This document shows positions 10,637-43,117 of a stretch of DNA of 64,000 bases, in pieces (positions within the stretch are counted from its first letter, which is position 1; each line of letters starts with the position of its first letter). Source of the stretch: Candidatus Woesebacteria bacterium (GTDB lineage Bacteria; Patescibacteriota; Microgenomatia; UBA8517); the NCBI GenBank assembly GCA_963716475.1, contig OY970314.1, positions 74,479-138,478 on the forward strand, read 5' to 3'. A model generated the notes under the pieces. The model was given only the letters and a program-made list of their open reading frames with translations, searched no databases and was not told the DNA's origin. A program made the translations under genes and the position numbers.

Positions 10637-11611
10637 TTAGTACTTTCTCTCAAGGACGAAGTTGATCAGCTCCTTCAGCTCGCTTCTGGCAGGCTCTTTC
10701 GAAAGAAAGCCGAGGTTTTTATCAAATATTTCCAGGGCTTTGGTTTTAGCATCATTCGCCAGTTTCCTTGCATAGGGTACGCCTCTTGTATTTGCTAAGG
10801 TCATTTTTCCCTCTTTACCGTCTTGTTCTATATCCAGAATATCATCAATCAGTTGAAAACACCGTCCAAGATATAAACCAAAATCAGTAATCTTATTTAA
10901 TTGATTATGGGTTGCTCCGGCGAGGATCGCCCCCAGCCTCATCGGCCCGGCCATTGAGTAATATGCACTTTTACTGTCGGCTATAAAAAAATATTCATCC
11001 TGACTTACCTTTTTGGCCTTTTTATTGGTCCAAATTTGTTCGACTCCTTGTCCGAGGGCGGTTCTGAGTAGCATTTTGTAAAACTCTTCACTAATGGCCT
11101 TGGAGTTTTGGTCATTAATAATTTTCCACATAATAATGTGCAGAGAGTCACCGGCGTTAATTGCCAGCTCGTGGCCGTAAATTTTATGTAAAGCGGGCTT
11201 ACCTCTTCTAACCGCCGAGCCGTCTTCAATATCGTCATGGATTAAGATCCATTCTTCGGAGAGCTGCATCGCCGCAGCAACCTTAAAAGCCTTTTGCCTT
11301 TTGGCTCCAAGAGCCTGTGCCGTGAGAAGAACCAGGGTGGGGCGCAGGTACTTGCCCTTCCTTTCCGGGTAAATTCTGTTTATTTTCCAGTACAAATTTA
11401 TGTCCTTTTTGTATTTGTCTGGGATCCGGAATTGGGTAGGGTAACTCGGATCCCTCAAATATTTTTTAATTTCTGGCCAGACGAGCTGTCTGGTCCTTTC
11501 TAAAGTTTTCTGTATCACAGCCGTATTATATCGCACGAATGCCTTGTGGTATAATTTCCTGATATGTCGGAGACAATATCGCTTCCCAGAGGCACAGTAA
11601 TTCCCAGCCAC
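10637..11611 (-). CDS. Polyprenyl (geranylgeranyl/farnesyl-type) diphosphate synthase
   Basis: Two Asp-rich motifs, 'LIHDDIEDGSAVRRGKPALH' and 'FQLIDDILD'. The start is uncertain: ATG 11611 overlaps divergent uppS by 48 nt, and an in-frame GTG at 11536 would give 300 codons. Confidence 0.82.
   Translation of the reverse strand: MAGNYCASGKRYCLRHIRKLYHKAFVRYNTAVIQKTLERTRQLVWPEIKKYLRDPSYPTQFRIPDKYKKDINLYWKINRIYPERKGKYLRPTLVLLTAQALGAKRQKAFKVAAAMQLSEEWILIHDDIEDGSAVRRGKPALHKIYGHELAINAGDSLHIIMWKIINDQNSKAISEEFYKMLLRTALGQGVEQIWTNKKAKKVSQDEYFFIADSKSAYYSMAGPMRLGAILAGATHNQLNKITDFGLYLGRCFQLIDDILDIEQDGKEGKMTLANTRGVPYARKLANDAKTKALEIFDKNLGFLSKEPARSELKELINFVLERKY
11547..11555 (+). promoter_or_regulatory. Extended -10 element (TGGTATAAT) upstream of uppS
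   Basis: Perfect TGnTATAAT ending 8 nt before the uppS ATG (11564), which implies a leaderless or 1-3 nt leader transcript. Confidence 0.45.
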
Positions 11612-12841
11612 ATCGCTATGATCTTAGACGGCAACAGACGTTGGGCCAGGGCCCGCGGTCTGAAGCCTTGGGAAGGTCATTATCATGGTTTTAAAGCGGT
11701 CGAAAAGCTTGCCGAAGCTGCCAGGCAATTGGGAGTACATACCTTTACCGTTTGGGCATTTTCTACAGAAAATTGGGAGCGTCCCAAAGAGGAGGTCGAC
11801 GCGATAATGAATCTCTTCCGGAAGGCTCTTAAAGAAAAAGAAAAAGAATTCCATCGGGACAGGGTTGCCTTAGTTCACCTGGGCAGGAAAGACAGATTGC
11901 CTGAGGATATCAGCCGGGAATTAACCAGAATCGAAAAAGATACAGCGGTTTACTCTCAAAACCACGTCTTTAACTTGGCGGTAGATTATGGGGGTAGAGA
12001 TGAGATTTTAAGGGCCACTAAGAAAATCGTTGAAAATAAAGTTCCGGCAGCCAAGATTGATGAAAAACTGTTTGAAAGCTACCTGGATACAGCAGGACAA
12101 CCGTATCCGTCCCCGGATCTATTTATTCGCACATCAGGAGAGCAGCGTACAAGCGGCCTTCTTCCTTGGCAGATGAGTTACACTGAATTTTATTTTGAGT
12201 CCGAGCACCTTCCGGATTTTACTCCTGAAAAACTTAAAGTGGCGGTTTTAGACTTTAGCAGGCGCAGGCGTAGGTTTGGCGGTGACGATACTACCAGGCA
12301 TTTTGAATTCAACCCGGGAGTTACGGCAAGACTTGAGATTGATTGGTGGAGGCTTCGGAATGTTCCCGGAGGTATGAGGATAAGGGACTATGCGATGAAG
12401 CACCTTAGAGAGCAATACGGGCTTTCTAAGAAGCTTGCAATTGAAGCCGCCAAATATTTGATTGAAGCAGTCGCCGAGGAGAAGGATGAAAAATGGGACA
12501 AGGCCACCGAAAGAATGAAAAAGTTCTATATGCTTATAAAAGAGGAGGTTAAACTTGCTTTCGAACCCAGGATAGTTGCTTCAATGGAGGTAGATTTTGT
12601 CAGGAAAATGGAAGGTAAAGATAGTGTGGCCGCGTCTTCCGAGGCAGAAAATATTGCCCGGGAGCATCTCGCCGAAGTATACAGAATCTCACTTCTTCAA
12701 GCCGCCAAGGCGGCTCATCTTAAGGTTCTGGCCTCGGTTGAAAGAAACATGGCTCTGGCCGGCTTGGGGGAAGAGCATTGGGCTAAAGCCGAAGATTACT
12801 TGTCAAAATATTACTCGGCACTAAAGGAACGCGTGGCATAG
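11564..12841 (+). CDS. uppS: Undecaprenyl (cis-polyprenyl) diphosphate synthase with ~175-aa C-terminal helical extension
   Basis: 'HIAMILDGNRRWA', 'FSTENWERP' and 'RTSGEQRTSGLLPWQ' cis-prenyltransferase motifs lie in the first ~245 aa. The remaining residues are Ala/Glu/Lys-rich with no family I recognise. Confidence 0.85.
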   Translation: MSETISLPRGTVIPSHIAMILDGNRRWARARGLKPWEGHYHGFKAVEKLAEAARQLGVHTFTVWAFSTENWERPKEEVDAIMNLFRKALKEKEKEFHRDRVALVHLGRKDRLPEDISRELTRIEKDTAVYSQNHVFNLAVDYGGRDEILRATKKIVENKVPAAKIDEKLFESYLDTAGQPYPSPDLFIRTSGEQRTSGLLPWQMSYTEFYFESEHLPDFTPEKLKVAVLDFSRRRRRFGGDDTTRHFEFNPGVTARLEIDWWRLRNVPGGMRIRDYAMKHLREQYGLSKKLAIEAAKYLIEAVAEEKDEKWDKATERMKKFYMLIKEEVKLAFEPRIVASMEVDFVRKMEGKDSVAASSEAENIAREHLAEVYRISLLQAAKAAHLKVLASVERNMALAGLGEEHWAKAEDYLSKYYSALKERVA

Positions 12842-12897
12842 TTTCCAATAATCTTCAAATTTGTAGTGATCTTGTTATCTACACGTCTAAATGGCTA

Positions 12898-12926
12898 TTG
12901 ACACAGTTGTTTCACTTTGATATTTT
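12898..12926 (+). promoter_or_regulatory. Sigma-70-type promoter (TTGACA-N17-TATTTT, TG at -15/-14)
   Basis: ggctaTTGACA at 12898-12903 and tgaTATTTT at 12918-12926, about 42 nt upstream of ORF 12969. An AGGAGA-like motif lies in the leader. Confidence 0.45.
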
Positions 12927-12968
12927 CTGACTAAGAAAGATAAGAGTTAGGCAGGAGACACTATAAAA

Positions 12969-13187
12969 ATGGATCAAAGCACTAAAAAGAAAATCAGATT
13001 GGAAGATCTTCCGGATCTTCTTACAGTACGGGAGGTAAGCGAACTCCTGCGGGTCTCGCCTTTAACAATTAAGCGTTGGGGTAAAAGGGGAAAACTCCCG
13101 GCTATCCGCATTAACTCCCGTGGAGACCGCAGATATAAAAAAGAGGCTGTCCTTTGGCTTCTGGGAATGCAGGCTAAGGAAGAGTAA
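12969..13187 (+). CDS. Excisionase-family / MerR-superfamily small HTH DNA-binding protein
   Basis: 72 aa; 'LLTVREVSELLRVSPLTIKRWGKRGKLPAIRINSRGDRRY' matches the excisionase-type HTH pattern. Confidence 0.68.
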   Translation: MDQSTKKKIRLEDLPDLLTVREVSELLRVSPLTIKRWGKRGKLPAIRINSRGDRRYKKEAVLWLLGMQAKEE

Positions 13188-13219
13188 CTTCTTCGTTCCT
13201 TCTCCGTGTTAATATAATA

Positions 13220-13489
13220 TTGATGAAGAAGCATGGAGGCTATCATTATATTCTTACGGCACTCGAGGTTTTGCTGAGTAAAGCCGCGTTTTTATTGGTT
13301 AGTATTGCAGCAGTACTGGCAGGTTATCTTATTTTCGTTGGTCAAAAAACTCCTTTAAAATTCATCTTCGGTATTCCTCTTATACTTGGCGGAGCCGGTT
13401 TGACCATAAACTTATTATGGACAATTATCCTGGTTATCTTTTCACCAAAATATAATCGCGGGGTTTGCAAGATCTGCAATCCAAGCTGA
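13220..13489 (+). CDS. Small membrane protein (about 3 TM)
   Basis: 89-aa ORF that is almost entirely hydrophobic segments. No motif recognised. Confidence 0.4.
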   Translation: MMKKHGGYHYILTALEVLLSKAAFLLVSIAAVLAGYLIFVGQKTPLKFIFGIPLILGGAGLTINLLWTIILVIFSPKYNRGVCKICNPS

Positions 13490-13615
13490 TCTACTTAGTT
13501 CTAATTGACTATTCGTTTTTCATAGGATAAAACACCCTTTAGAAGAACTTGACAGCAACCTTCTGCCCGAGGGAACTCCAATCTTCGTTTTTACTGGCAT
13601 GGTGCTTAACATTTT

Positions 13616-13834
13616 ATGATGCTTATATTTGCATTTCTGACACTTGGTTATTTTGCCGGCGTAATCACGGCACTTGTCATATTCCCTCCAAAGGTAAAAG
13701 AGATTGAAATGCAGGAAAAAGATGCTGCCGGACCGGTTAACGACCTGATTACGTATGAAGAACCGCAGCTTAACCCGGTAATAGGCAAAGATTTGAGAAT
13801 AGAAATTGGTAATACGCAACCCGCTTCGCTATAG
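13616..13834 (+). CDS. Small single-pass membrane protein
   Basis: 72-aa ORF with an N-terminal hydrophobic helix and an acidic tail. Confidence 0.33.
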   Translation: MMLIFAFLTLGYFAGVITALVIFPPKVKEIEMQEKDAAGPVNDLITYEEPQLNPVIGKDLRIEIGNTQPASL

Positions 13835-13845
13835 AATTAAATGTA

Positions 13846-15228
13846 ATGTATCCTCCCCAAACCTCCCTGATCCCGGTTGCAGTAGCTCTTGCCAGGTTTT
13901 TGGGAGAGAAGGGCTTATCAGCCTTAACCTCCAGTTATCCTTATTGGTATCTGGGAACGACTCCTTACGGGTATTTGACAGGACCCGTTATCCCGATCCT
14001 CTCAGTTTTAGTTAAAAAAATCGCTTCAGGAGCTACATATTTTGATATCGAAATAGTATTGGTTCTTGCTTCCTGTCTGGCGTCTTCAGTAGGCTGGTCT
14101 CTTCTTGTAGCCAGAATTAAAGAAGAAAAAATAAATCTGTCATCTTTTGCGATCTATTTTCTGCTTTTCGCGGTTCTGCCTTGGAAGTACCTCAACGGAT
14201 TAGCTTTAGCCGAGCCCTCGGCATTTATTGCGGAAATGCTTATTCCGTATGTATTTTTGGCCGTGGCGAAAAACCGCTATCTTGGAATCATCTCGGTTTT
14301 GACAGTACTTCTTATTAGTACAAACGTGCTGCCGGTTTTAATTGTGGGGATGGCAGTTCTGGCCTTGACCGGATCGTTTACTGGGGGAAAATTAAAAAAA
14401 TGGAAGGAGTCTGTAAAAAGAAGCATTATAATTTTGATTTTTGGACTCGCTTTAGCGACTTTTTACTACACGCCGGGCTTTTGGCTGACAGTTTTGGTTA
14501 ATCCCTCTGTCGGGGGAGTTCCCGGGGTAAAAGCCATGCTGTCACTGATCGGAATGGCAAGAAACGCGATACCCATACTTCTTGCCTTTATTGTAATTTA
14601 CCTTTCAAGGAGAATTCCGGATAAAATTAGCTTTTTTGGCTGGGCATGGGTATTGGTTTTTGCTTTTCTGACCGTTTGGAGAGCTCTAGGTAACATCCAT
14701 TTTTGGATGGACTGGATAAGTTGGTTTGGGGAAATCGAGATAGGTTTAGGAATCCTGATTGCGGCCAATCTTAAGAACCTCCGCCGGCTTTTTCTTTTGG
14801 TTTTGCCGTTTCTTGCGACATTTCTGGTTTTTAATGCAATCGGGAAGCCCGTGCTTATCACAAAGAGTCCTCCGCCCGAAATAACAAGTATTTCCAAACT
14901 CGCGGGTCTTGCGGGCGGAAGTCTTGTTTTTACTTCAGGGACAGGTGTGTTTTGGTTGAATGCTTTTTATAATACACCGCAGGTGCGGGGAGGAAGGGAC
15001 GAGGTATCGGTCAGTTCCATGTGGCTTCCTGTTTCATATGCCCTAAGGGAAGGAACTGACGAAAAAGTTATTTCTCAGGACCTGGGTGAACTTGGTATTT
15101 CCTACATATTGGTCAATTCATATGCATCTTACGACTATTACCATGATTATAAGAACGTTAACCTTTGGGACAGTGTTGCTAAAGCGGTTTGGCAGGGGTC
15201 GGGAGACGTTATTTACGTATTCAAGTAA
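13846..15228 (+). CDS. Polytopic membrane protein, GT-C-like (paralogue of 43814-45154)
   Basis: 460 aa with more than 10 hydrophobic segments and a C-terminal soluble tail. Its N-terminal 'TGPVIPILSVLV' block resembles 'SGPVIPVLTNLL' in ORF 43814. Confidence 0.55.
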   Translation: MYPPQTSLIPVAVALARFLGEKGLSALTSSYPYWYLGTTPYGYLTGPVIPILSVLVKKIASGATYFDIEIVLVLASCLASSVGWSLLVARIKEEKINLSSFAIYFLLFAVLPWKYLNGLALAEPSAFIAEMLIPYVFLAVAKNRYLGIISVLTVLLISTNVLPVLIVGMAVLALTGSFTGGKLKKWKESVKRSIIILIFGLALATFYYTPGFWLTVLVNPSVGGVPGVKAMLSLIGMARNAIPILLAFIVIYLSRRIPDKISFFGWAWVLVFAFLTVWRALGNIHFWMDWISWFGEIEIGLGILIAANLKNLRRLFLLVLPFLATFLVFNAIGKPVLITKSPPPEITSISKLAGLAGGSLVFTSGTGVFWLNAFYNTPQVRGGRDEVSVSSMWLPVSYALREGTDEKVISQDLGELGISYILVNSYASYDYYHDYKNVNLWDSVAKAVWQGSGDVIYVFK

Positions 15229-15350: not shown

Positions 15351-15380
15351 TTGACAAACGTTCCCATGGTTGGTAACAAT
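15351..15380 (+). promoter_or_regulatory. Promoter of giant gene 1: TTGACA-N11-GGTTGGTAACAAT
   Basis: TTGACA at 15351-15356 and TGgTAACAA extended -10-like at 15371-15379. The same 13-mer at the same spacing recurs upstream of giant gene 2. Confidence 0.5.
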
Positions 15381-15394
15381 TAATTAGTAGCAAA

Positions 15395-18300
15395 ATGCCC
15401 ACAAAAGAAAAAATCTCCGCGGTAAAAAAAGTTTTGGAAGGAATTTCTGTCTCTTCTGTTGCATCTGAGGCCGGGGTTGCCAGAAAAACAATATATTCGT
15501 GGCTAAATATTTATAAAGCCGCTGCCAAAAGAAACAAAAAAACCTGTCTCTTGCCCAAATATGTGGCGGGAAGGGCTCACCCGAGGGAATATACGCACAC
15601 TTTGGAGCAGAAGACAGTAAGACTAATAAAGAAGGACCCGACACTTAGCGTTTCCAAAATGGCTGAAAGATTAAACGCAGGACATCATGCGGTTTACAAT
15701 CTTTTAAAGGCCTTAAAATTGAACACAGAAGATTCCAGGCTTGCATACTCCCGGATTTACTCATATCCCGGTATTTTTGACCCCCAAATTAAGGAATCGG
15801 TTGCAAGGAAAATTGTGAATTCGGAAGGAAAAGTCACGGATATTTCCAGGGAGCTACGGGTTTCCAGAAAGACTATATATAAATGGTTAAAAGAATACAA
15901 AGAGAAGGGAACAGTAAGAAATAACTATTTGAAAGGTTTTGAACACCCCAGATCACTTGGCCCGGAGGCGGAAGCGTCAGTGCTCTCGCAAGTCGTAAAG
16001 GCGCCGGAACTTTCAATTCATGCCTTGGCCACCGGTTTAAACTTTTCCAATCATGCGGTTTTTAATATTCTAAAAAGAAATTTCCTGACTCAAAGAAATG
16101 CCAGGATTATCTATTCTCAGGCTCAGGCTATCCGGGTTTCCGAAAAACCGGAAGCTATCGGTTTTATCGACAGGATAAAGAGTGTTTTTGAAACCTTTAC
16201 TCCGAATCTGGCCCCGGCTCCGCCTCCGGGGGGAAAATCCAAGTTTAGCCCTCTTCTTAAAATCTCCCTGGCTTCGATAATCGTTTTACCGCTTTTCACT
16301 CTTGCCCTGGTCTATTGGGTGAATCTATTAAGGTCCGGTGCAGCAGGGAACGTCGTCGGGCTTATCTTTGCCACAATATCCCTGATTATGGGTACTTTCT
16401 TCTTTTTATATTCACTCAAATATTATTTTACGGTCGCTTTGGTTCTTTCCCGCACCCAGCAGGAAGGGTCAAAAAGCCGTACTTCTATCGGTCTTGAACC
16501 CAATCTCGATCACGTAATTCTCACAAAGAAGCCATACATATCAGTTCATATACCTTTTTATAATGAGAAGAATGTAGTAGAGCGTGCAATTGAGGCTTCA
16601 ACCAATTTCGATTACCCGGAGTATGAAGTGATTCTTTGTGATGATTCAACCGATGAAACAACAACCATTATCAGGGATTATCAAAAGAAATATCTTTCAA
16701 AAGGGGAGAGCTTAAAAATAACTACCAATAGTCAAGACGGCTGGGAGCTGTCCCATGTGGATGTCAGACCGGGAGTAACCCTTAAACATCTTCACAGGAT
16801 CTCAAGAGAAGGTTACAAGGGGGGAGCACTCAGGCTAGCTCTTACTCAGACTGATCCCAGGGCTGAGTTTGTCTCTGTCTTTGATGCCGATTTTGTTCCA
16901 TATCCTGATTCTCTAAACCTTTTCCTCAAGTACTTTAAAGCTGAGAATAACATGAGTGAGGATTATACAGTAAGTAAGGTTGCTGCGGTTCAAGGTTACC
17001 AGTGGCATGTACTTAATAAATCCGAAAACTGGATAACCAGGGGTGTCAGAAGTGAATATGCAGGTAGCTACGTTATCGAAAGAGCGGGAACTGAAATCTA
17101 TGGGGGACTAAAACAAATCTCGGGGTCAGTATATATGATTAGACGTAAGCCCCTAGAAGAAGTAGGCTGGGCCACATCAATCACTGAGGACTTTGAACTT
17201 ACTCTCAAACTATATAATGCCGGCTACAAGGTGGTCTATACACCTTATATACAAGCTCCTGCAGAATGTGTATCAACCCTAAGACGCTTAGTGAGGCAAC
17301 GTATGCGTTGGGCCGAGGGTCATTCTTTCAATGTCAAAAAGATGTTTGCAAAGCTTATGTTCTCTCCGAAACTTTCTTCTGCCGAGAAGTTTGAAACGGT
17401 TTACCTTGCCCCTTACTACCTTCAGGCATTCTTTTTTGTAGTCGGAACTCTTTCCTGGTTTATCAGTGAGACTCTCCTGCCTGCCCGTCTGCCTTTCTGG
17501 ACAGAACTTTGGGGATGGAGTCTGGTCTTAACCAACATGGTAGCCCTTCCCCTTATGAACACCGTCGGAATGTTCCTGGAAGAAAGTGAACAGAAGGACT
17601 ATACAGGAATACTATCATTCGTCGCTCTTTCATACCTTGTGGTCCCGTTTCAGGCCTACGCGGCTGTCAAGGGCTTTCTGGAGACCTCAGAAGGGCCTTG
17701 GTTTAGAACTCCCAAGACCGGTAGAATCACAGACGTCTTTGCCAGGGGTAAATTCTACAGGCTTATCAGACAGATCCTTCCCAGAAGAGCCACCTCATTC
17801 CAAAGTACTTATTCATACAACTACATTACCTTAACGACAGCAAATAATAGATTTAGCAATTTTAAAATAAAAAGGTCGGGAAATAAATATATTTCAAAAG
17901 CATTACTTACGGGATTAACGATTATTATTTTACTTTTGAATCAACTTAGCTTCTTTGCCCCGGGAGTACTTGCGGCAAGTCCTAACCCTACTATTGAACA
18001 ACAAATAAATTTTATGGATAAATTATACTCTACAACCAGCACGAGTGCCGCACCGGGCGATAATTCTTTAGGAATGTTTACTTGGAATGACTCAAAATAT
18101 AATAACGCAACTGTTAATATGGACTATGATGCTGGGAAAAGCGGAAACTTGTCTTATGGCCTAACTTCTGTGGGACTTTCTTTGGTTAATGGAACAACAT
18201 ACACACCGGCAATAAGGTATCAATGTCTTGCAGTGAGTGGAATAGCAACCGAATACGCTATTCCAGGGTTATATACGTCAGGTGGAGTTTTAGTTCAATT

Positions 18301-19282
18301 CTCAGAAGTTTCAATTTCTCTCGGCGAGGTTCCGGGTGGGAAATGTCCTACTTCAGCGAACAGAACACCTGCATATATTGCTGCGGCACGCCTAAGAATT
18401 GTACAGACAAATGCTACCGGAATTACAAATACCAGAAACATGATTGAACTGGGAGATGGTGAAACCATTTCAACAGGTACAACAGCAACTCAGCTAACTT
18501 ACCCCAAATATTGGCTTTATACATCGGGAAATTATGACGGGACTGTTACTACGACTTTTGAAGCGACTGTTTGGAGGGCCGGTGGCAGTTCATACACCGC
18601 CTACGTATGTCTGTATTCTACAGCAGGCAGTGAGATCGGGTGTGTGAGTACCACAAGTACATCCCCGGCTTACCCGACCGCAGTAAGCGTAACCCTGTCA
18701 AACGGAACCGAATATGAAGTAAGAGTCAAAGCCAGCGCAGCCGCAAAAACTGTATATATTGCAAACGCTAAAGTTATAGTTGATCAAGCAGCGGCAGGGG
18801 GAATTACCAAATTGGAAACAGTGCAACATTATAATAACACTCTGGCAACGGAATCAACATCTTCCTATGTTTCTAAGCAATTTTTAACCGAGTTTGTTTT
18901 GGATAACTGGTATGGCGGAACGTTTGCTGCCTATTTTGAGTCGGATATAAAGACTAATAACAGTTCAAATGCCTATTATGCTCGTTTGTACGATATTTAT
19001 AATGCTACCCCTATGGGAGAGATTACAGGTAATGATACTTCCTATGTTAGAAAAACCAGTTCGGATATATGGAGTTCTCTTGCTGCGGGTGGCAATACAA
19101 TGATAGACGTTCAACTGAAAAATAATTCGACCAGCACCACCTCATCATCAAATTCTTGGTTAATCATTAAAGTAACAAATTTACAAGTGCCCGAGAAGCT
19201 TATTTTTGCCCTGCCGTTGATATCCTTAATCCCGATTATAATTAAAAAAAGGAAGGAGATTCTATTAAATAGAAATGGTTGA
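15395..19282 (+). CDS. Giant gene 1: tandem HTH - polytopic processive GT2 synthase - variable ectodomain - VPE-CTERM protein
   Basis: 1295 aa. Two HTH modules ('VASEAGVARKTIYSWLNIYK', 'ISRELRVSRKTIYKWLKEYKEKG'). GT2 motifs 'CDDSTDET', 'FDADFVPYPD', 'QGYQWH', 'SITEDFELT' and 'RQRMRWAEGH'. Multiple TM segments and a Ser/Thr/Asn-rich C-terminal ~400 aa, ending 'VPEKLIFALPLISLIPIIIKKRKE'. Confidence 0.85.
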   Translation: MPTKEKISAVKKVLEGISVSSVASEAGVARKTIYSWLNIYKAAAKRNKKTCLLPKYVAGRAHPREYTHTLEQKTVRLIKKDPTLSVSKMAERLNAGHHAVYNLLKALKLNTEDSRLAYSRIYSYPGIFDPQIKESVARKIVNSEGKVTDISRELRVSRKTIYKWLKEYKEKGTVRNNYLKGFEHPRSLGPEAEASVLSQVVKAPELSIHALATGLNFSNHAVFNILKRNFLTQRNARIIYSQAQAIRVSEKPEAIGFIDRIKSVFETFTPNLAPAPPPGGKSKFSPLLKISLASIIVLPLFTLALVYWVNLLRSGAAGNVVGLIFATISLIMGTFFFLYSLKYYFTVALVLSRTQQEGSKSRTSIGLEPNLDHVILTKKPYISVHIPFYNEKNVVERAIEASTNFDYPEYEVILCDDSTDETTTIIRDYQKKYLSKGESLKITTNSQDGWELSHVDVRPGVTLKHLHRISREGYKGGALRLALTQTDPRAEFVSVFDADFVPYPDSLNLFLKYFKAENNMSEDYTVSKVAAVQGYQWHVLNKSENWITRGVRSEYAGSYVIERAGTEIYGGLKQISGSVYMIRRKPLEEVGWATSITEDFELTLKLYNAGYKVVYTPYIQAPAECVSTLRRLVRQRMRWAEGHSFNVKKMFAKLMFSPKLSSAEKFETVYLAPYYLQAFFFVVGTLSWFISETLLPARLPFWTELWGWSLVLTNMVALPLMNTVGMFLEESEQKDYTGILSFVALSYLVVPFQAYAAVKGFLETSEGPWFRTPKTGRITDVFARGKFYRLIRQILPRRATSFQSTYSYNYITLTTANNRFSNFKIKRSGNKYISKALLTGLTIIILLLNQLSFFAPGVLAASPNPTIEQQINFMDKLYSTTSTSAAPGDNSLGMFTWNDSKYNNATVNMDYDAGKSGNLSYGLTSVGLSLVNGTTYTPAIRYQCLAVSGIATEYAIPGLYTSGGVLVQFSEVSISLGEVPGGKCPTSANRTPAYIAAARLRIVQTNATGITNTRNMIELGDGETISTGTTATQLTYPKYWLYTSGNYDGTVTTTFEATVWRAGGSSYTAYVCLYSTAGSEIGCVSTTSTSPAYPTAVSVTLSNGTEYEVRVKASAAAKTVYIANAKVIVDQAAAGGITKLETVQHYNNTLATESTSSYVSKQFLTEFVLDNWYGGTFAAYFESDIKTNNSSNAYYARLYDIYNATPMGEITGNDTSYVRKTSSDIWSSLAAGGNTMIDVQLKNNSTSTTSSSNSWLIIKVTNLQVPEKLIFALPLISLIPIIIKKRKEILLNRNG
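19187..19279 (+). other. C-terminal tripartite sorting-signal-like region (VPEK / Pro-rich hydrophobic / KKRK)
   Basis: 'VPEKLIFALPLISLIPIIIKKRKEILLNRNG' at the extreme C-terminus of giant gene 1. The layout matches PEP-CTERM / archaeosortase signals. Confidence 0.65.
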
Positions 19283-19838
19283 AAAAAGGAAAATTATAAA
19301 TATTTTGCTTATAGCCAGCCTAATTTTGGCTTTACTGCCTTTTTATGTGAGCTTTCAGGATTTACTTACAAATATAGTTATGAAGGTAAATTTGTATAAA
19401 GCTTTACAAAACACAATTGTGCCATATGAAATGAAAGTGGTAGGCGGAATTATAAACCTGTTACGTTTTCCGATTAGCGCAGGCAGTAGTTATTTTTCAT
19501 GGAATATAGCCAATGGTAAAAAAGAAGCAGTCTATTTGGCCTGGAACTGTATTGGTTGGCAGACTATGATACTGTTTTTGGTGACATTAGTTACAGGTTT
19601 TTCAAAAAGACACCTCTTAAGTTCAAAAATTGAAGCTATTTTAATAGGAGCGCTAGGGACATATATAATAAACATTGTAAGGATTACTGTTGTTATTTTG
19701 ATCTATTTCTGGTTTGGCCGGGGGTTTGGAATAATATTCCACGATTACTTCTCATCTCTAATTACAATATTCTGGTTAATAGGGTATTGGCTGTTTGTTT
19801 ATAAACATACCCTAATAGAAAAATCCGTCGAAGAGTAG
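19275..19838 (+). CDS. Miniature exosortase/archaeosortase-like polytopic protein (cassette 1)
   Basis: 187 aa with about 5 hydrophobic segments. Motifs 'AWNCIGWQT', 'INIVRITV' and 'IFHDYFS' are conserved in the paralogues at 33555 and 41283. The ATG overlaps the giant-gene stop by 8 nt. Confidence 0.62.
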   Translation: MVEKRKIINILLIASLILALLPFYVSFQDLLTNIVMKVNLYKALQNTIVPYEMKVVGGIINLLRFPISAGSSYFSWNIANGKKEAVYLAWNCIGWQTMILFLVTLVTGFSKRHLLSSKIEAILIGALGTYIINIVRITVVILIYFWFGRGFGIIFHDYFSSLITIFWLIGYWLFVYKHTLIEKSVEE

Positions 19839-20290
19839 CGGAACAGGTTGTTTTGGTAAAAATATTCTTCCACAATACACAAGACATGGATGTATTGATT
19901 AACCTAATTGGTTGTCGTTTTCTGGTGGCTTTCGTATAGATATATTTTGGAAGATAAGGAAAGCACGGGAAAGGATATAGTTGAGGTTTGAGCATATATT
20001 TTACTCCATCATATATGCCGTATAGATGGGATTTACTGTCAATCCACTGGTTAAAGTGAACACCAAACCAAGGGAAATTTCTTCATCAATATAGGTTGTA
20101 TTATTTAACGAAACCGGCTGACATTTGACCCAAATCCGGAAGAATAATCTCTAACCAATCATCGTTTTTAAATGATTCTTTTGAGGCCGGATCAACAGCT
20201 TTCTGACTATCTGTGGGTTGAGAATTCGATGGGAATGACTTTTCTGAGCCAGCATAAAGACCTGGCCATGCACACCCAGGAAGTACAAAG

Positions 20291-20325
20291 ACCGATAGTA
20301 TATAATCTCCGCACCGATAGTATAT
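20291..20325. repeat. Tandem direct 13-mer ACCGATAGTATAT x2 (22-bp period)
   Basis: Exact copies at 20291-20303 and 20313-20325 in the ORF-poor spacer upstream of giant gene 2. Confidence 0.9.
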
Positions 20326-20437
20326 TTGAGGCCAATTGTATCTTCATTTCGTGCCTGTTTCGACTTTTTTGTCTATGTCCAGCCTGGCCGTGAGGCCGAA
20401 TTTATCCACCGCCATTTTATGAGCCTGTAGTTAGTAC

Positions 20438-20467
20438 TTGACAGGTGTTAGGATGGTTGGTAACAAT
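20438..20467 (+). promoter_or_regulatory. Promoter of giant gene 2: TTGACA-N11-GGTTGGTAACAAT
   Basis: TTGACA at 20438-20443 and the 13-mer at 20455-20467, identical in sequence and spacing to gene 1. The -10-like hexamer ends 7 nt before ATG 20474, which suggests a leaderless mRNA. Confidence 0.5.
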
Positions 20468-20473
20468 GAATAT

Positions 20474-23400
20474 ATGCCCTTTTCCGAAGCTAAAAGAGAA
20501 AAGATCGTTTTATCCGTACTAAAGGATAATATTGCGGTTTCGGAAGTCTCCAGAAACTACTCTGTTGCCCGAAAAACTATTTACTCTTGGATAAAGAGGT
20601 ATAAAAAGGGAAGTCTTGCTCCACTATATACAAAGGGCAGGAAACACCCGGCGGCCGTATACCCGAAAGCCTATTCTTATATAAGTAGATGGGCTGTAGG
20701 GCACCCCAAGTGGGGATGCCGCACTTTGAGTAAAAGATTAAATGAAAAAGGAATCAGCTTGAGCTACGTTCAGGTTAACAGATTGTTGAACACAATCGGA
20801 GCGGAGACTTATGACAGAAGGTTGAATTATGCCAGAAACTTTGCCGGTCCGGGGAGAACCAGGGAGGATGTCAGGCTTGAAATTGTCAAAAAGGCCGTTA
20901 CCGGGAAAATTTCCATTACAACTCTTTCCGAAAACTACAAAGTTGCCCGTAAGACCATATATAAATGGATAGCGAAATACCGGGCCATTGGTAACATTAA
21001 AGATTCGTACGTCGTTGGTGAGGCTCATCCCAAGGCAATCTACCCGAAAATTACGCAGCAAGTACTCGACTTGGTCGTTACAAACCCCGGTTATTCGGTA
21101 CGCACTCTGGCTAAATCATTTCCGGCATCCTCTTGGACCATCTGGAGTATTTTAAATAGAAATAATCTGAATACATATAATTTAAGGCTCGAATATTCCA
21201 GGAATATATCTGAGGCTGCCGAAGAGAAAGTCTCGACAACGGGAGTTTCCGAAAGGATAAGATCTGTTTTTGAAAGCTTTACTCCAAATCTGGCTCCGGC
21301 CCCGCCTCCGGGGAAACGTAAAATCTTCAACTTCTTCATTATTTCAGTCTTCCTCTTATCAATATCCTTAGCAATTTTCTATTGGGGATCCGTAATTGTT
21401 CACGCTCCGAATATTGCCGGGTCCATAGGCATGATTTTTGCAGGCGTCTCACTGTCACTCGGAATGTTTTTCTTCCTTTATTCTCTTAAATACTATATTT
21501 CTACAGCGATAGTGCTTTCATATTCACAGAAAGAGGGCTTAGATGCCTCGAGAGTAAGCGCTACCGGCTTAAACTCAGACCTCAGTAACATTCATCTTGA
21601 ACGGCATCCTTATGTCTCGGTTCATCTGGCTCTCTATAACGAGAAGAATGTGGTGGAAAGACTGATGAAAGCAGCTACTTCTTTCGATTACGACAATTAT
21701 GAAGTAATCATCGCGGATGACTCAACTGATGAAACCACCGACAAAATCAGGGAGTTTCTGAAAACATTCCTTCCTAAAGGTGAATCGCTTCGGCAAACCA
21801 AAGGGGACGGGTGGGCAATGACAGAAGTTGACATAAGGAGCGGGGTTGTCTTTAAACATGTCCATAGAACCACAAGGATGGGTTATAAAGGGGGAGCGCT
21901 GAAGCTTGCCCTTTCTCTTACCGACCCGAAAGCTGAATTTGTTTCTGTCTTTGATGCCGATTTTGTGCCTTACCCAGATTCCCTGATGCTATTTCTTAAA
22001 TACTTCAAACTACAGAATAATGGATCAGAAGACTACAAAACAAGTAATACTGCATCAGTTCAGGGCTATCAGTGGCACGTACTTAATAAATCAGAAAACT
22101 GGATTACTAGGGGAGTCAGAAGTGAGTATGCAGGTAGCTACGTAATAGAAAGAGCCGGAACCGAAATCTACAAAGGCCTAAAGCAAATCTCGGGATCAGT
22201 TTACATGATCAGGCGCGATGTTTTGGAAGGAATAGGTTGGGGTACTTCTATCACTGAGGACTTTGAGCTTACCCTGAAACTCTACGAAAAAGGCTACAAA
22301 GTGGTTTATACGCCGTATATTCAGGCTCCGGCTGAATGCGTATCGACCCTAAGAAGACTTGTCAGACAACGTATGCGTTGGGCGGAAGGACATTCTTTCA
22401 ATGTCAAAAAGATGTTCGCAAAGCTTATGTTCTCTCCAAAACTTTCTTCCGCCGAGAAGTTTGAAACGGTTTATCTTGCCCCTTACTATCTACAGGCATT
22501 ATTCTTCCTCATCGGAACTCTCTCCTGGTTCATTTCGGAAACCATTTTACCCGCCCGCCTTCCTTTCTGGACAGAGCTTTGGGGATGGAGTTTGGTTCTG
22601 ACCAATATGATTTCACTGCCGCTTCTAAACACAGTCGGACTTTTCTTAGAGGAATCGGACAGAAAGGATTACTCGGGTATTCCATCTTTTATAGCTCTTT
22701 CATATATAGTTGTTCCGTTTCAGGCCTATGCGGCTGTAAAAGGCTTTCTGGAGAAGGAGGAAGGACCATGGTTTAGAACTCCGAAAACCGGCCGCATTAC
22801 GGATGTTTTCAAAAGAGGTAAGTTCTACAAATTTATTTCCGGGATCTTGCCGGGGAAGGCTGCCGGTTCTGCCACGAGTTATGATCTAAGTCCTTATCTT
22901 GCCCTGACCTCAGCCAATAATAGATTCAGCTCGTTCTCCATTCAAACAAGAAAAGGCAGAAGGTGGGTGGGAAAACTAATGCTAACCTCAATGCTTATTA
23001 TTTCCAATCTTCTTCTTTCTTTTTCTCCTTATATTGAATCAAGGGACGGCAACAGCCAACCTCCTCCGGGAACAGGTATTCTTATGGATGGCAGTACAAA
23101 AGGATCGGGAGGCAAGGTCAATTTAACTCCTGAGCAGCAGCAGTCTTTGGACAAATCGATTAAAGCGAATAACCAAAAAACAAGCTTTAAACTGGTTAGC
23201 GATGTCTCGGCAGCAGAAATATCCGGAGGCAGTGAGGTGAACACCTCCTTTGATGTTAAAAAGAAAGACCTTGAACTTAGCGGGGGAAATACCACCTTTA
23301 CAACTGATGAAAATCCCCAATTTACCTTAAAGCAGAACGACGGTTTTTGGGAATTTATCAAGAATATTTTCATTAAAGAAAAACCCTTGAAAGATCAGGT

Positions 23401-26400
23401 TGTTGTAACAGTTTTGGACTTAAAAGGTAAGGAGGTGGGAAGCCCGCAGGTGGTAGAAGGTGGAATTGATGATTTAAGTATAAATCTTGACAAAACAACC
23501 CTTACTCCGGGCGGATATACTCTTGAGATCAAAAGTGGGAGTAGCCCCGTTATCACCCAGGATTTCAGTTGGGGAGTGCTGGCAATAAATACCAATAAGT
23601 CGGTATATAGTCCGGGTGAAGACGCCTCCATTTCAATGGGGGTTCTTAATGAAGTTGGAGAAACGCTTTGTAGCGCGGGACTAACGCTTGATATTACAGA
23701 CACGGCAGGCACAGTTACCGCTTTAACCACAAAGGAGGGCACCATTAAAGTCAGCGATGAATGCAGCCTCAAGGGCTTCAGCCTGAAACCCGACTATGAA
23801 GCAGCCTACAAAACAACGGTTGCAGGAAAGTACAGCATGGTTCTGACTGCAGAGACTCTTAACGGCAAATATGTTATCAAGGGTTGGTTTGAGGCAAAAG
23901 ACTCGGTCGATTTTGACGTCGAAACGATTACGGCCTCCAGAATTAATCCGGTTTATGAATACCCGGTTATTTTTATAGTTAAGGCGGGTAAAGACTACAA
24001 TGGCATTGTTGAAGAAAAAGTCCCGGCCGGCTTTGAAATCAGTAAACTCAACGACTTAAAGTTGAATAACTATCTGGATTCTAAAGGGGAAAGTACGGCA
24101 AGCGGTAAACTTCAGGAGACACTGGTTAATGACGGTTCACAGGAGGCGGGACAAAAAACACTCCGTTGGATTGTTGACTGGAAAAAAGACCAGACTTATG
24201 TTCTTGCATACGCTTTTAAAGCGCCGATGGTCAGTCCAGAATTTTATCTACTCGGGCCGCTCTGGATCGGGGCATATGAGGGAGCGGGAGGTTGGCAGAT
24301 AGCCGCGGATAAGGTCCCTGCTGGGATTATTGTCGGTTGGCCGTCAACTGTAGCCTCAATTCCTAATCACTGGAGCAGGGTTTCAGGCGCGGCTCTTGAC
24401 GGGTACTTTTTAAGATCAGTAACAGCAACTGATCCGTCGGGTACTCCCGGAGGAAATGCCAGCCATACTCATTCACCGGCGAGTCATACTCATTCCGTTC
24501 CTGTCCATACACATACAGTTCCCGCTTTTGCCCAATCAACCAATACTTCGGCAACGACGGGTAACTCTACGGGTTCCGCCCGTGATACTCATACTCATGC
24601 GGCATTTAGTTCCGGAAATTCCAACGTAACCGTCAATAATGCCCAGACGGTTCCTTTTGCGGGACTTTCCAATGACCCCGATAATTCAACCGTCATCTGG
24701 ATCCAGTCGGACGGAGACCCGTCTACCGAAATTCCGGTAGGGTCTTATGTTTACTTTGACTCAAACACCATGCCGGGAGCCAACTGGGGTAGAGTAAAGG
24801 GAAATTACTTCCTTAAAGGTGCGGCAACGGGTTTAGGGGGAGGAACCGATACGGTAACAGGTTCCGCAACTCATACCCACGCCGCCTCAGCCGACCATAC
24901 CCATACTGAGGCTGCCCATACCCATTCAGGGAGCTCGGCAGGAGGTTCACTTGCTGTTTCCAGTACGGGAACTGGGTCTTACTCTCCGAGTGGCCATACA
25001 CATACCGTTACCTCAAGCTCCGTTGCGGCAACGGAGGGAGGAGCATCGGTAACCCCGACAGTCGGAGTGGCCGCTCCCTCGGGAGAACCTCCTTGGTACA
25101 AACTTAATATCATTAGTAAGTCTACAGGTGCTAATGAAACTCCTTTAAATGTCATTGCCATGTGGACCGGAACTCTGGCAACAATTCCCGACGGTTGGGT
25201 AATTTGTGACGGAACAAATGGAACTCCAAACCTGGGTACAAACTTTATCAAAGGCGCAAATGCCGACGGGGAGCTCAATACCACCGGGGGTTCCCTTACC
25301 CACACTCATGGGGCAGGCAATACCCATACACATACAATAAATGCTCACGTACACACCTGGACGGTTGGAGCTGCCTCCGGAACCGGTGTTGGATTAACGG
25401 GAAATGGAAGATCAGCCGTGGTCAGTACTCATACACATACCCTCAGCGCTGCGCAAACATCAAGTGGCGGAGGTTCAACAGGAACGGCAACTATTACGGC
25501 CGACTCGCAATCTAATCTTCCTCTCTACAAAGAGGTTGCCTACATTATGTATATCGGTAAGACTGTTGCCGGTAAAGCCTATTCGGATGAAGCAACCAGT
25601 ATCTGGGCCGGTTGTGACAACTCGACTGCCAGAATAAGTTTGGTAGTTAACGGCGGTACAGCCTCCACAACCTCATGCAGCAGTTCAGACGGATCTTTCA
25701 GTTTCAAGAATGTTACTCACGCGACAGATAATCCAATATCGGTATTTTTTAATACCGCAGGTAGCAATGCCGACAAAGGTGTGGCAGTTACTATCGCCAA
25801 CGATGCCACTACTCCGATTACCCTTAATCCCAGAAAAAATATTGTCTGGATGAGGAGTGAGAAAGCAACACCGACCATTACCAACTCCAATCTGGCTCAT
25901 TGTTATGCCTCAACCCCCGCAAGCTGTGCCAATGTCCCGTATTCTGCTTCGGGAGCCAATATAACCCTAACTACTGGAGTTGAGCTTCATGTAGAAAGCA
26001 GTATGACATATGATCCCGGGGGAACCACTGCAACCACCGGTACCGGAAGTCTGCATGTGGATGACAATGCTGTCGCATACTTGGATACTACTGGCAATAC
26101 CATTGCTAATAATATTTTAGTGGATGCCGGGGCGACCATTCATATTGATGCCAGTACGGCAGTAAACGGGGGAAATATCACGGTTACAGGTAACGGAATA
26201 GTATCTTCAGCCGCCGGAACCGTAACTATGGGGGCAAGCGGAACCATTGGGGGAGGATCAACAGGATCTACCTTCCAGTTAACAGATCTTGTTGTTTCTT
26301 CGGGGACTACAACCCTGGGGACGGATGCCGACAATATACTGGACTTTACCGGGGATATCAACGTTTCGGCCGGAGCCGTGCTTGCCATGAACAATAAAAC

Positions 26401-33554: not shown

Positions 33555-34127
33555 ATGAATCAAAAAGCGCTTTTTAAACAAATACTGGCAACCCTTGTAA
33601 TTATATTGGCAGTTTTACCTGTGATTGTGACTTTTTCGGCAGTTTTGACTTCATTTTTCGAAAAAATTAAGCTTTATGTGTGGCTTCAGGATCTGGCTGT
33701 TCCTTTTGAAAGCAGACTGGTTGCGGTTCTAATCCAACTCTTTGGAATCAAAGGAATTATAACCCCCGGCAGCAGTTTTGCCATGGTTTTGCGGACATCC
33801 TCGGGGACTTTTACCCCGGTTGCATTGGAATGGAACTGTTTGGGCTGGCAAAGCCTGATTCTATTGGGTCTTACCCTAATAACAGGCCTCAGGGGAGCTT
33901 ACACGGGTTTAAGTAAAGCCCAGGTTGTTCTTTTCGGAATACTCGGAACTTTTTTATCAAATCTATTCAGGATGGCTTTTATTGTCATTCTGGCTTTTTA
34001 TTGGAATTCATTTGCAGCTATGATTATCCATGATTATTTTGCCAGTTTTGTCGCTATCATCTGGATGTTATTTTTCTGGTGGTTCTCCTACAGGTATATT
34101 TTGGAGGAAAAACCTGCGGGAAACTAA
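33555..34127 (+). CDS. Miniature exosortase/archaeosortase-like polytopic protein (cassette 2)
   Basis: 190 aa with 'EWNCLGWQS', 'SNLFRMAF', 'IIHDYFA' and the tail 'FWWFSYRYILEEK' shared with cassette 3. It starts 4 nt after the upstream stop. Confidence 0.62.
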   Translation: MNQKALFKQILATLVIILAVLPVIVTFSAVLTSFFEKIKLYVWLQDLAVPFESRLVAVLIQLFGIKGIITPGSSFAMVLRTSSGTFTPVALEWNCLGWQSLILLGLTLITGLRGAYTGLSKAQVVLFGILGTFLSNLFRMAFIVILAFYWNSFAAMIIHDYFASFVAIIWMLFFWWFSYRYILEEKPAGN

Positions 34128-34435: not shown

Positions 34436-34926
34436 ATTAATATGATAATAATTAAGTATATTAACCTGAAGATAATACTGTCAAGAGGAAAAAGAAATAA
34501 AATCTATTGTCGATTTTTTATTATAGCCAATACGTTCGATAATTTGATAGGATTAGGGTTCTAATAAAGTATTTACTCAATCGTGAAAAGCTATCAAAGA
34601 AAATAGCAACAACCCTTATAGAACATAATAATACCTATATATATGTATCCTGATCAATATTTTTCAATAATTACCATAAACATATAGGAGAATAACAGAT
34701 GCCGGACGGGCAGAAAGGTTAACATTTGAGGCTGATTTCGGAGTAATAAAATGACTCATATAGCCAGTTCTCTTATAACCAATCGTTATATTTCGAGATA
34801 TTAGTTTAGAAATATCTATATCCTCTAGTAACATAGCTATATTTGAATTGGAAAATATGAGATTTAAACCGTTATTATCAACAGTATTTTAACCCATAGC
34901 CTCTTAAATGAGGATACTATTGACCA

Positions 34927-35006
34927 TTGACAGATGTTACCCACAAGGTGTTAACATAATATATTAGCATCGTTTTCACGGGATTTAGAAACTAATGTGT
35001 TAACAC
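34927..35006 (+). promoter_or_regulatory. Putative promoter/operator region of giant gene 3 (TTGACA ... TGTTAACAT ... GTGTTAACAC)
   Basis: TTGACA at 34927-34932, TGtTAACAT extended -10-like at 34949-34957, and a 10-bp perfect palindrome GTGTTAACAC at 34997-35006, 6 nt before ATG 35013. Confidence 0.4.
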
Positions 35007-35012
35007 CCTGCC

Positions 35013-42988: not shown

Positions 42989-43117
42989 GACAGGTAGATT
43001 ATCAGAAATAGTATACTAGAAAAAGATTTAGGTACAATGGGACAAAAAAGAATCCATTGTGCGAAAACCCATTGACGTATATTGGGGTGTTTGGGTACAC
43101 TTGGGGCTGAATTAAAA

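Follow-up and report, generated by a model that had tools for sequence, protein, structure and literature searches.

Gene organization of the locus

The stretch of DNA analyzed here, referred to as the window, comprises 64,000 nucleotides of a Candidatus Woesebacteria contig (OY970314.1 of assembly GCA_963716475.1, positions 74,479 to 138,478), and contains three giant genes, designated G1, G2 and G3, each of which encodes a transposase-type helix-turn-helix (HTH) DNA-binding head fused to the N-terminus of a membrane glycan synthase. All coordinates given are those of the window. The peptides described in an earlier sequence-only reading of this DNA are located in these three open reading frames (ORFs; Table 1), all of which are real. 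G2 and G3 are paralogues of G1 located downstream of it, and the cassette unit is present three times in 27 kb. The start of G2 stands at the previously proposed ATG at 20474, and the alternative TTG at 20438 is the -35 hexamer of the promoter. These three genes are the only ORFs in the window bearing the HTH unit described below, and each is preceded by a promoter motif whose variants covary, across related genes, with residues of the fused head.

The N-terminal heads

The first 260 residues of G1 form two homologous units, as the sequence-only reading had proposed, each consisting of an HTH_28/HTH_23 module, a basic linker and an HTH_32 module; the two are 35% identical over 117 amino acids (aa; E 6.5e-19). 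The arrangement claimed for G2 is the same, with two complete IS481-like units (35.5% identity over 121 aa, E 1.3e-22), and in G3 a lone first HTH of ~60 aa precedes one complete unit. An HTH-HTH-winged-helix series had been described for G3, of which the succession of HTHs is roughly right, but the last module is of the three-helix HTH_32 type and a winged helix is not demonstrated. The linker FE(T/S)FTPNLAPAPPPG was found, as reported, in both G1 and G2, and is semi-conserved across the family as F.P.LAPAPPP.

Strong Pfam matches to HTH_28, HTH_23, HTH_Tnp_1, HTH_29 and HTH_32 occur in two stretches of each protein and exceed the curated cut-offs (for G1, HTH_23 E 4.9e-14 and HTH_28 E 1.5e-13). 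The suggested resemblance to the DNA-binding region of transposases is borne out by the NCBIfam IS481 transposase model NF033577, of whose 284 positions ~1-120 are matched twice per protein (E 2.7e-15, 1.6e-23 and 6.3e-26). The scores of 57-92 bits are far under the equivalog cut-off of 224 bits because the catalytic part of the model is unmatched, and no DDE/rve core follows the head. The heads are strongly basic (isoelectric point ~10; 42-48 Lys plus Arg versus 20-24 Asp plus Glu), and the HTH signature residues R30, Y34, W36, R158, W164, L226 and L231 are near-invariant in the family.

An AlphaFold2 model of G1 aa 1-287, computed from an alignment of 63 sequences, has a mean predicted local distance difference test score (pLDDT) of 88, with values above 90 in the unit 1 helices, and reveals four three-helix modules (aa 3-42, 68-106, 130-171 and 190-228). 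Foldseek matches this head to the DNA-bound paired domains of Pax6 (6pax) and Pax5 (1k78) with probability 1.0 and E of only 0.03-0.06, and to the DNA-binding domains of Mos1, SETMAR, IstA and Mu transposase with probability 0.94-1.0. The E-values of the whole four-module head are weak (>=0.01) because the modules are flexibly or arbitrarily oriented in the model, and the per-unit matches alone are meaningful. In the PDB, the head finds its best sequence match in the Prd paired domain (1pdn, E 0.005); the aligned region takes in the recognition helix and the linker, and pairs GTVRNNYLKGFEHPR of the head with GSIRPGVIGGSKPR. The segment previously described as an HP(R/K) turn can therefore be identified as the linker between paired-type subdomains. 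Transposases read their terminal repeats with bipartite DNA-binding domains of this paired-like kind, and each head unit is predicted to be one.

Membrane topology and the synthase domain

The head of G1 is joined to the membrane by a tether of ~40 aa (pLDDT 35-45 in an 835-aa model), and exactly two strong transmembrane (TM) helices, aa 288-306 and 320-338, lie between the head and the glycosyltransferase family 2 (GT2) domain; the corresponding helices in the model span 285-314 and 317-355. Because nucleotide sugars are the substrate of the GT2 domain it must face the cytoplasm, and because the number of TM helices between the two is even, the head is likewise predicted on the cytoplasmic side. 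The sequence-only reading had called this a membrane-tethered domesticated transposase DNA-binding head. Both computational checks that could have refuted this description, the HTH profiles and the topology, come out in its favor, as does the conservation of the fusion, and profile and fold homology suggest a transposase descent.

The GT2 domain contains the invariant motifs DDSTD, FDADF, TED and QRMRW (residues D416/D417, D497/D499, E598/D599 and Q635-W639) and is flanked on both sides by TM helices. PDB sequence matches are to BcsA, and Foldseek matches are to BcsA (E 1e-15) and to hyaluronan and chitin synthases (E 1e-14 to 1e-9), with plant CesA also matched. Scores against PgaC TIGR03937 and CelA TIGR03030 are 87 and 85 bits versus cut-offs of 422 and 699, so the domain falls outside both equivalogs.

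A promoter motif specific to the fusion genes

Alignment of the regions upstream of 58 fusion genes with complete N-termini yields a motif present in 52 of them, with the consensus TTGACA-n3-GT(A/T)CCCA-n5-(G/T)G(G/T)TAACA(n)T, in which the right block overlaps the -10 and the length of the -35/-10 spacer is conserved. The motif was modeled as a position weight matrix (PWM) with a 20-nt core, derived by expectation maximization and applied at thresholds of >=16 or >=14 bits. With the >=16-bit threshold, 43 sites fall in the 300 nt before fusion genes. The remainder of the 818 kb of related loci, searched on both strands, contributes 12, several of them in those same intergenic regions, and shuffled sequence gives 2. 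Nearly all of 76 non-redundant sites have an exact TTGACA as -35, and most classes have a spacer of 17-18 bp.

The window contains three strong sites, one before each paralogue (Table 1), and the next best score is 11.9 bits. The ATG of G1 is 15 nt past the motif core and -10, and that of G2 is 6 nt beyond the -10, a leaderless-like arrangement; in the GGTAAC class as a whole the median distance from core to ATG is 12 nt. An independent simple promoter scan finds TTGACA-18-AACAAT at the same positions before G1 and G2 (15351-15380 and 20438-20467). The G3 site is a 24-bp palindrome, ATGTTACC (34934-34941), n8, GTTAACAT (34950-34957), within a 19-bp spacer, and the second element before G3 has comparable counterparts in the G3-like loci L011, L040, L048, L056 and L061. 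A fourth conserved block upstream of the -35, sought as a match to the four HTH modules, gave nothing robust, the only candidate being C[CT]TATA[AG] at a variable distance.

Metagenomes were scanned with the pattern TTGACAN{2,5}GTWCCCATNNNNGGTAACA, and downstream ORFs were called by three-frame scanning with hidden Markov models. Of 42 matches, 37 could be evaluated, and 35 of these have an ORF with tandem IS481-like units within about 100 nt downstream, which marks the motif as a cis-element private to this gene family and not a general promoter type. It also follows the type of head: a site of >=14 bits is present for 30 of 42 genes with IS481-like heads versus none of 5 genes with other heads, and in the MerR-head locus L075 and in L076 and L077, which include a relative with a different head, the best site anywhere scores <=9.2 bits.

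Covariation between the motif and the head

The two blocks of the motif covary with residues at positions 2 and 5 of the predicted recognition helices. At position 2 of the HTH1 helix (K31 and K159 in G1), directly following the conserved (S/A)-R, the residue is Lys in all genes with the right block (G/A)GTAACA and T, V, P, A, N or Q in those with the right blocks GTTAACA, GTTTACA, TTTAACA and ATTAACA. This rule has no mismatches in 50 genes and was equaled in none of 10,000 permutations, and Fitch parsimony on a neighbor-joining (NJ) tree of whole heads gives 4 changes for each character, on the same branches. Lys is also present in 31 of 32 metagenome cases that had been selected for GGTAACA. 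For the left block, position 5 of the HTH2 helix in the membrane-proximal unit is Gln with (G/T)(T)ACCCA (26/26), Tyr or Phe with TTCCCA (8/8, including F223 of G1), and Trp with GTTAG(G/T/C)A (3/3, including G2).

Sister clades have the right block and Lys in common and differ in the left block and the HTH2 residue, and any paralogues sharing a contig are told apart by one or both blocks together with the matching residue; in the window the residue pairs are F/Y and K in G1, W and K in G2, and Q and V in G3. The blocks lie ~12 bp apart with an AT-rich stretch between them. In Pax-DNA complexes HTH1 occupies one major groove, the linker the minor groove, and HTH2 the next major groove, and by analogy the spacing and AT-rich middle of the motif fit the span of a paired-like unit.

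Table 1. Coordinates of the fusion genes, their parts, and neighboring features in the window
Feature	Position	Strand	Remarks
G1	15395-19282	+	1295 aa; first ~250 residues = 15395-16150
G1 promoter/putative operator	15351-15380	+	-35 TTGACA 15351-15356; core GTTCCCATGGTTGGTAACAA 15360-15379 overlaps -10 AACAAT; 25.5 bits, best in window
G1 head unit 1 (aa 1-125)	15395-15769	+	HTH_28/23 (recognition helix from R30-K31), HPR linker, HTH_32 (Y101)
G1 head unit 2 (aa 126-260)	15770-16174	+	HTH_28/23 (R158-K159), linker GTVRNNYLKGFEHPR, HTH_32 (H220, F223)
G1 juxtamembrane tether (aa 261-287)	16175-16255	+	contains FETFTPNLAPAPPPG; pLDDT 35-45; motif in family consensus
G1 TM1 and TM2 (aa 288-338)	16256-16408	+	hydropathy, flanking charges
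G1 processive GT2 synthase and C-terminal TM/interface helices (aa ~375-762)	16517-17680	+	Pfam Glyco_trans_2_3 E 1.7e-18
G1 ectodomain (aa ~862-1264) and sorting-signal-like tail	17978-19282	+	tail VPEKLIFALPLISLIPIIIKKRK, conserved in family
Exosortase/archaeosortase-family gene	19275-19838	+	TIGR04178 E 1.2e-9; overlaps G1 end by 8 nt
G2 promoter/putative operator	20438-20467	+	-35 TTGACA 20438-20443; core GTTAGGATGGTTGGTAACAA 20447-20466; 16.9 bits
G2, whole gene	ATG 20474 to 31612	+	3712 aa; head, two TMs, GT2 synthase, 2,860-aa ectodomain, VPEY...KKKR tail
G2 head (aa 1-278 from ATG 20474)	20474-21307	+	two complete IS481-like units; Pfam, NCBIfam
TMEM260/PMT_2-like protein O-mannosyltransferase	31625-33550		C-terminal TPR repeats; Pfam TMEM260-like E 4e-26
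Second exosortase-like gene	33555-34127	+	TIGR04178 E 9.7e-8; downstream of G2 and TMEM260/PMT-like gene
MerR-family regulator, 103 aa	34124-34435	-	MerR_1 E 3.7e-14; divergent from G3
G3 promoter/putative operator	34927-34957	+	-35 TTGACA 34927-34932; site at 34938; 16.7 bits (+), 11.6 bits (-)
Second G3 element	34997-35005	+	GTGTTAACA; 8 nt before G3 start codon
G3, whole gene	35013-41273	+	2086 aa; head, TMs, GT2, ectodomain, VPEN...KKLRRK tail
G3 head	35013-35717	+	first HTH aa 1-~70, complete unit aa ~73-215, then tether
Third exosortase-like gene	41283-41888	+	TIGR04178 E 1.5e-7; directly after G3
C-terminal tails of G1, G2 and G3	19187-19279; ~31500-31609; ~41170-41270	+	[VI]PE-TM-basic

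Distribution of the family

The earlier suggestion that the same fusion be looked for in related genomes is answered by more than 1,500 homologues, the majority from Patescibacteria of the Microgenomates group, and 145 genomic loci. A database query with G1 aa 1-800 returned 1,585 homologues, the best ~100 of which are mostly full-length fusions with 40-60% identity and include named carriers in Patescibacteria, Woesebacteria and Daviesbacteria. Scanning of loci in one genome per species gave 145 relatives in Woese-, Chisholm-, Curtiss-, Gottesman- and Daviesbacteria, other Microgenomates and CPR3, often several per genome. Heads in the family contain one, one and a half, or two units. With a single unit as query, 1.84 billion representative proteins yielded 812 matches at E<=1e-3 and 243 at E<=1e-10; nearly all of the best 150 show two tandem copies, and ten matches of middling length have HTH families only and no DDE domain. 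The nearest relatives of the unit in this collection are all fusion heads, with no active transposases among them, and the 818 kb of related loci contain no transposases and no other unit-bearing ORFs. By sequence comparison, the head clade is well separated from active transposases.

In other branches of this GT2 family (P0109/L075, L062 and L071) the place of the head is taken by an unrelated DNA-binding domain of MerR/HTH_17 type, which argues that DNA binding itself is the selected property. Taken together with L066, L067, L068 and L072, these branches have MerR/excisionase-type (HTH_17) heads or TM-rich N-termini without an HTH, and in L066, L067 and L068 an HTH_17-like peptide (RNWD..GRLKAVR.G.RRDRRWRKEDI) is encoded just upstream of the synthase in an apparently separate ORF. 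The GT2 domains of paralogues in one genome can be near-identical while their head and promoter classes differ (for example L005 973 versus 5977 and L006 5989 versus 10964), and the promoter and head seem to be exchanged or homogenized as a 5' module independently of the enzyme part.

Ectodomains, sorting tails and exosortase-like genes

The ectodomains of G1-G3 range from 400 to 2,860 aa and are largely without family matches, with a Laminin_G_3 match in G2. Residues 1331-1655 of the G2 ectodomain (24464-25438) contain three repeated His-Thr-His-rich modules, for example SHTHSPASHTHSVPVHTHTVP and THTHAASADHTHTEAAHTHSG, which have no Pfam match and are reminiscent of metal-binding or phage tail-collar-like repeats. 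The C-terminal tails of G1-G3 and of most complete homologues consist of [VI]PE, ~20 hydrophobic residues and KKRK. A second class in the family (P0017, P0035, P0049-P0051, P0066, P0075, P0109 and P0110) lacks this tail and ends in a conserved basic/acidic stretch terminating in ...(A)LDxLPV, which may be a different C-terminal signal.

Known exosortase sorting signals combine a short Pro-Glu motif, a TM helix and a basic cluster, and exosortases themselves are membrane proteins with conserved Cys, Arg and His (PMC1569441). The tails of the fusion proteins fit this tripartite signal by sequence, and no NCBIfam sorting-signal model matches them. All three exosortase-like ORFs in the window exceed the cut-off of the generic TIGR04178 signature, the only one matched, and carry WNC[IL]GW (WNCIGW in the G1 neighbor), NxxR (NIVR) and HDY motifs. 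The giant gene lies next to an exosortase gene in ~45 related loci, often with an overlap of 3-10 bp, and each ectodomain tail is presumably processed by its neighboring exosortase-like protein. To judge from these sequences, exosortase and synthase are paired one to one in what appears to be an undescribed system, with the synthase polypeptide itself as the substrate. O-glycosylation of the ectodomains is suggested by the PMT-like gene, which separates G2 from its exosortase-like gene.

Flanking and intergenic regions

The cassettes are flanked by genes for a polyprenyl synthetase, an undecaprenyl-diphosphate synthase and a soluble-type GT2 (10637-12841; 43082-43813), consistent with a larger envelope-glycan locus. 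A 460-aa multi-TM ORF at 13846-15228, without family assignment, is a conserved neighbor in 24 loci, and in L010 this ORF has a separate copy of the promoter motif. Although the genome is otherwise compact, three stretches upstream of cassette genes (12842-13845, 19839-20437 and 34436-34926; GC 30-40%) are free of ORFs over an unusual length of 0.5-1 kb. An Rfam search of the whole window found two tRNAs only, leaving the long upstream gaps with no known RNA element, and a search of 12842-13845, 19839-20473 and 34436-35012 for relics of heads, MerR or exosortase genes found none.

Discussion

Autoregulation was one of three functions that the sequence-only reading had offered for the head, and the promoter motif and recognition-residue covariation now give it computational support. 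We consider the chances somewhat better than even that the membrane-tethered, paired-domain-like head recognizes an operator within the promoter of its own gene and, probably, represses that gene. The head would act as a cytoplasmic, flexibly tethered, sequence-specific DNA-binding domain of one to two paired-domain-like units. Its first HTH would read the right block G(G/T)TAACA, overlapping the -10; the linker would be placed over the AT-rich 5-6 bp separating the blocks; and the second HTH of the membrane-proximal unit would read the left block GT(A/T)CCCA in the -35/-10 spacer. Since the site occupies the spacer and -10 of a near-consensus core promoter, binding would most likely block RNA polymerase, and would constitute negative autoregulation of a very large and costly membrane protein. 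Translation of the short-leader or leaderless mRNA yields the head before the rest of the protein, so the head may act preferentially in cis, as transposases do; and because paralogues in one genome have different combinations of operator and residue, each cassette would be regulated independently.

Several observations weigh against this interpretation. All support for DNA binding by the head is comparative; we infer repression rather than activation from the position of the site only; and that a polytopic membrane protein can bind chromosomal DNA is an assumption modeled on ToxR and CadC. A scoring site is missing for about 10-25% of genes with IS481-like heads, and the GTTTCCA class (L033, L051 and L065) has Gln, breaking the Gln/Tyr rule. 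Because the promoter adjoins the head-coding DNA and moves with it as a 5' module, co-inheritance alone could give part of the covariation; the GT2 and head trees do disagree, and this linkage contributes to it. The count of four independent co-transitions is approximate, because NJ trees on ~120-280 aa are weak.

The same motif could be read by another factor, such as the divergent MerR protein, a specialized sigma factor or an RNA polymerase contact, with the head binding elsewhere or anchoring the nucleoid non-specifically, and we regard this as unlikely, though it is the alternative to be taken most seriously. Classic MerR operators are dyads in a 19-20-bp -35/-10 spacer, bound by a MerR dimer. 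A further point against self-binding by the head is that MerR homologues are matched in 16 loci (including L005, L006, L019, L034, L048 and L074), usually divergent and several hundred nt upstream of the fusion gene, the three weakest of these matches having divergent N-termini. The motif itself lies in the -35/-10 spacer, and the palindromic G3 site with its 19-bp spacer has typical MerR geometry; MerR/HTH_17-type heads also occur on some branches of the GT2 family. Spacers of 17-18 bp are found in most motif classes. Against MerR as the binder, the blocks of most classes are asymmetric (CCCA without a mirrored TGGG) and fit a homodimer poorly, and MerR is present in 16 of 75 sources versus the motif before about 90% of fusion genes. 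In the promoter of the MerR gene (34436-34500 here) the conserved spacer motif is another one, TTGACA-n4-5-(T)G(A/C)TATCAAC(T)TTT-ATnnT, of TGATATCA type. The MerR HTH (HPRT[LI]M[LA]YE) is essentially invariant next to fusion genes of either the GGTAAC or the GTTAAC type, while the motif of those genes changes along with residues of their heads, and in metagenomes the motif is essentially exclusive to fusion genes. The conserved divergent MerR is thus the main rival for the role of motif binder, and a weakened one.

Alternatively, the head may bind its own promoter and not repress it, acting instead in activation, in tethering of the gene for transertion, or in coupling transcription to the synthase. 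The motif and covariation accommodate this equally, and a spacer-remodeling activator is conceivable given the imperfect -10 hexamers (AACAAT and TAACAT) and the 19-bp spacer of G3; the short or absent leaders likewise fit a tight coupling of transcription and translation. We think such an outcome rather improbable, as the perfect -35 and 17-18-bp spacer already make a strong promoter, and repression is usual for sites over the spacer and -10.

It is highly improbable that the head no longer binds DNA and is an exapted helical module regulating or oligomerizing the synthase, for example in active-site gating or as a leucine-zipper-like dimer. Weak LZ_Tnp_IS481 matches, a head evolving much faster than the GT2 domain (mean identity among homologues 32% versus 67%) and the cytoplasmic regulatory domains of other processive synthases, such as PilZ in BcsA, are compatible with it, but the basic charge and canonical recognition-helix residues are kept, a 40-aa low-confidence tether separates head and enzyme, sister branches swap in an unrelated DNA-binding fold and never a non-DNA-binding domain, and the gene-specific motif and covariation would be left without explanation. 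An insertion sequence (IS) fragment or small regulator gene wrongly merged with a synthase ORF by assembly or gene calling, as the automatic annotation of such proteins as 'glycosyltransferase/transposase' and the apparently separate HTH_17-type ORFs of L066, L067 and L068 might suggest, is effectively refuted through conservation, as all three paralogues here and their counterparts in hundreds of independent assemblies read through without a break in frame, relatives preserve the head-tether-TM junction, and there are no DDE domains or IS ends nearby.

The likeness of the heads to the DNA-binding regions of IS481, IS630 and Tc1-mariner transposases and to the Pax paired domain consists of two three-helix HTH modules with a basic linker, of the HTH_28/23/32 profiles and IS481 positions 1-120, of the folds of 6pax, 1k78, Mos1 and SETMAR, and of two conserved DNA blocks ~12 bp apart that would fit a paired-like footprint. 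Transposases often autoregulate, with a promoter located within the terminal repeat that they bind. The fusion heads differ from IS481 transposases in having no DDE/rve domain, terminal repeats or mobility, in having the motif once per gene and upstream only, and in the tandem duplication of the unit and its fusion to a polytopic membrane enzyme. In ToxR, CadC and TcpP a membrane-tethered cytoplasmic DNA-binding domain regulates transcription without release. The likeness of the fusion head to these proteins is one of functional analogy only: they have an OmpR-type winged helix, a single TM helix and a periplasmic sensor, whereas the fusion has a transposase/paired-type HTH and a multi-TM enzyme, and unlike theirs its target appears to be its own gene only.

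With BcsA-PilZ, PgaC and the hyaluronan and chitin synthases the fusions share the D, DxD, TED and QxxRW motifs, the fold and a cytoplasmic regulatory module. The usual add-on in BcsA is PilZ, a second-messenger receptor, whereas the module of the fusions is N-terminal and of DNA-binding type; they differ from GT2 synthases also by the C-terminal ectodomain of 400-2,900 aa with its sorting tail. PEP-CTERM/exosortase and XrtG-type systems share the tripartite tail, the adjacent exosortase and the GT2 association (reflected in the names of TIGR03111 and NF053846), and the fusions differ from them in the one-to-one pairing, in having the synthase as the predicted substrate, and in a tail outside the described signal models. 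Searches of a literature library on exosortases of Candidate Phyla Radiation (CPR)/Patescibacteria, GT-HTH fusions, membrane-bound transcription factors and domesticated transposases gave no account of this fusion. Membrane-tethered regulators and recruited transposase DNA-binding domains are kinds already known, and what is new here is the dedicated promoter motif and its covariation with the head.

A broader evolutionary scenario, which we offer tentatively and hold to be clearly short of even odds, is that the left end of an IS481-like element was captured before a synthase, giving rise to cis-acting, self-addressed and orthogonal surface cassettes. The relic would consist of the promoter-bearing repeat and the DNA-binding domain, and the nascent head would bind its own promoter co-translationally and in cis, as transposases do. 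Self-binding would tie the gene to the membrane and set the copy number of the giant synthase-adhesin, which would then be processed by its adjacent dedicated exosortase, and the paralogues would have diversified their pairs of operator and recognition residue to stay orthogonal.

The predicted binding of the head to its own promoter lends itself to tests on small soluble proteins and DNAs of 30 bp, so that the organism need not be cultured. The simple residue-to-base rules predicted here (Lys with G; Gln, Tyr or Trp with the left block) would, if true, amount to a natural orthogonal set of proteins and operators. The exosortase pairing in turn points to an undescribed sorting signal and exosortase subfamily in the CPR.

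CPR/Patescibacteria have tiny genomes and few recognizable transcription factors, and their regulation and envelope biogenesis are little understood. The cassettes described here combine a DNA-binding domain, a probable operator, a synthase, an ectodomain, a sorting signal and an adjoining sortase in one compact unit, conserved across candidate phyla. If the head binds its own promoter, it would represent a new membrane-tethered control architecture, in which an enzyme directly regulates its own gene, and a bacterial case of a transposase-type DNA-binding domain recruited for regulation. If the cassettes were also derived from a captured element as suggested above, ultra-small CPR cells would control alternative surface coats independently or mutually exclusively without a free transcription factor.

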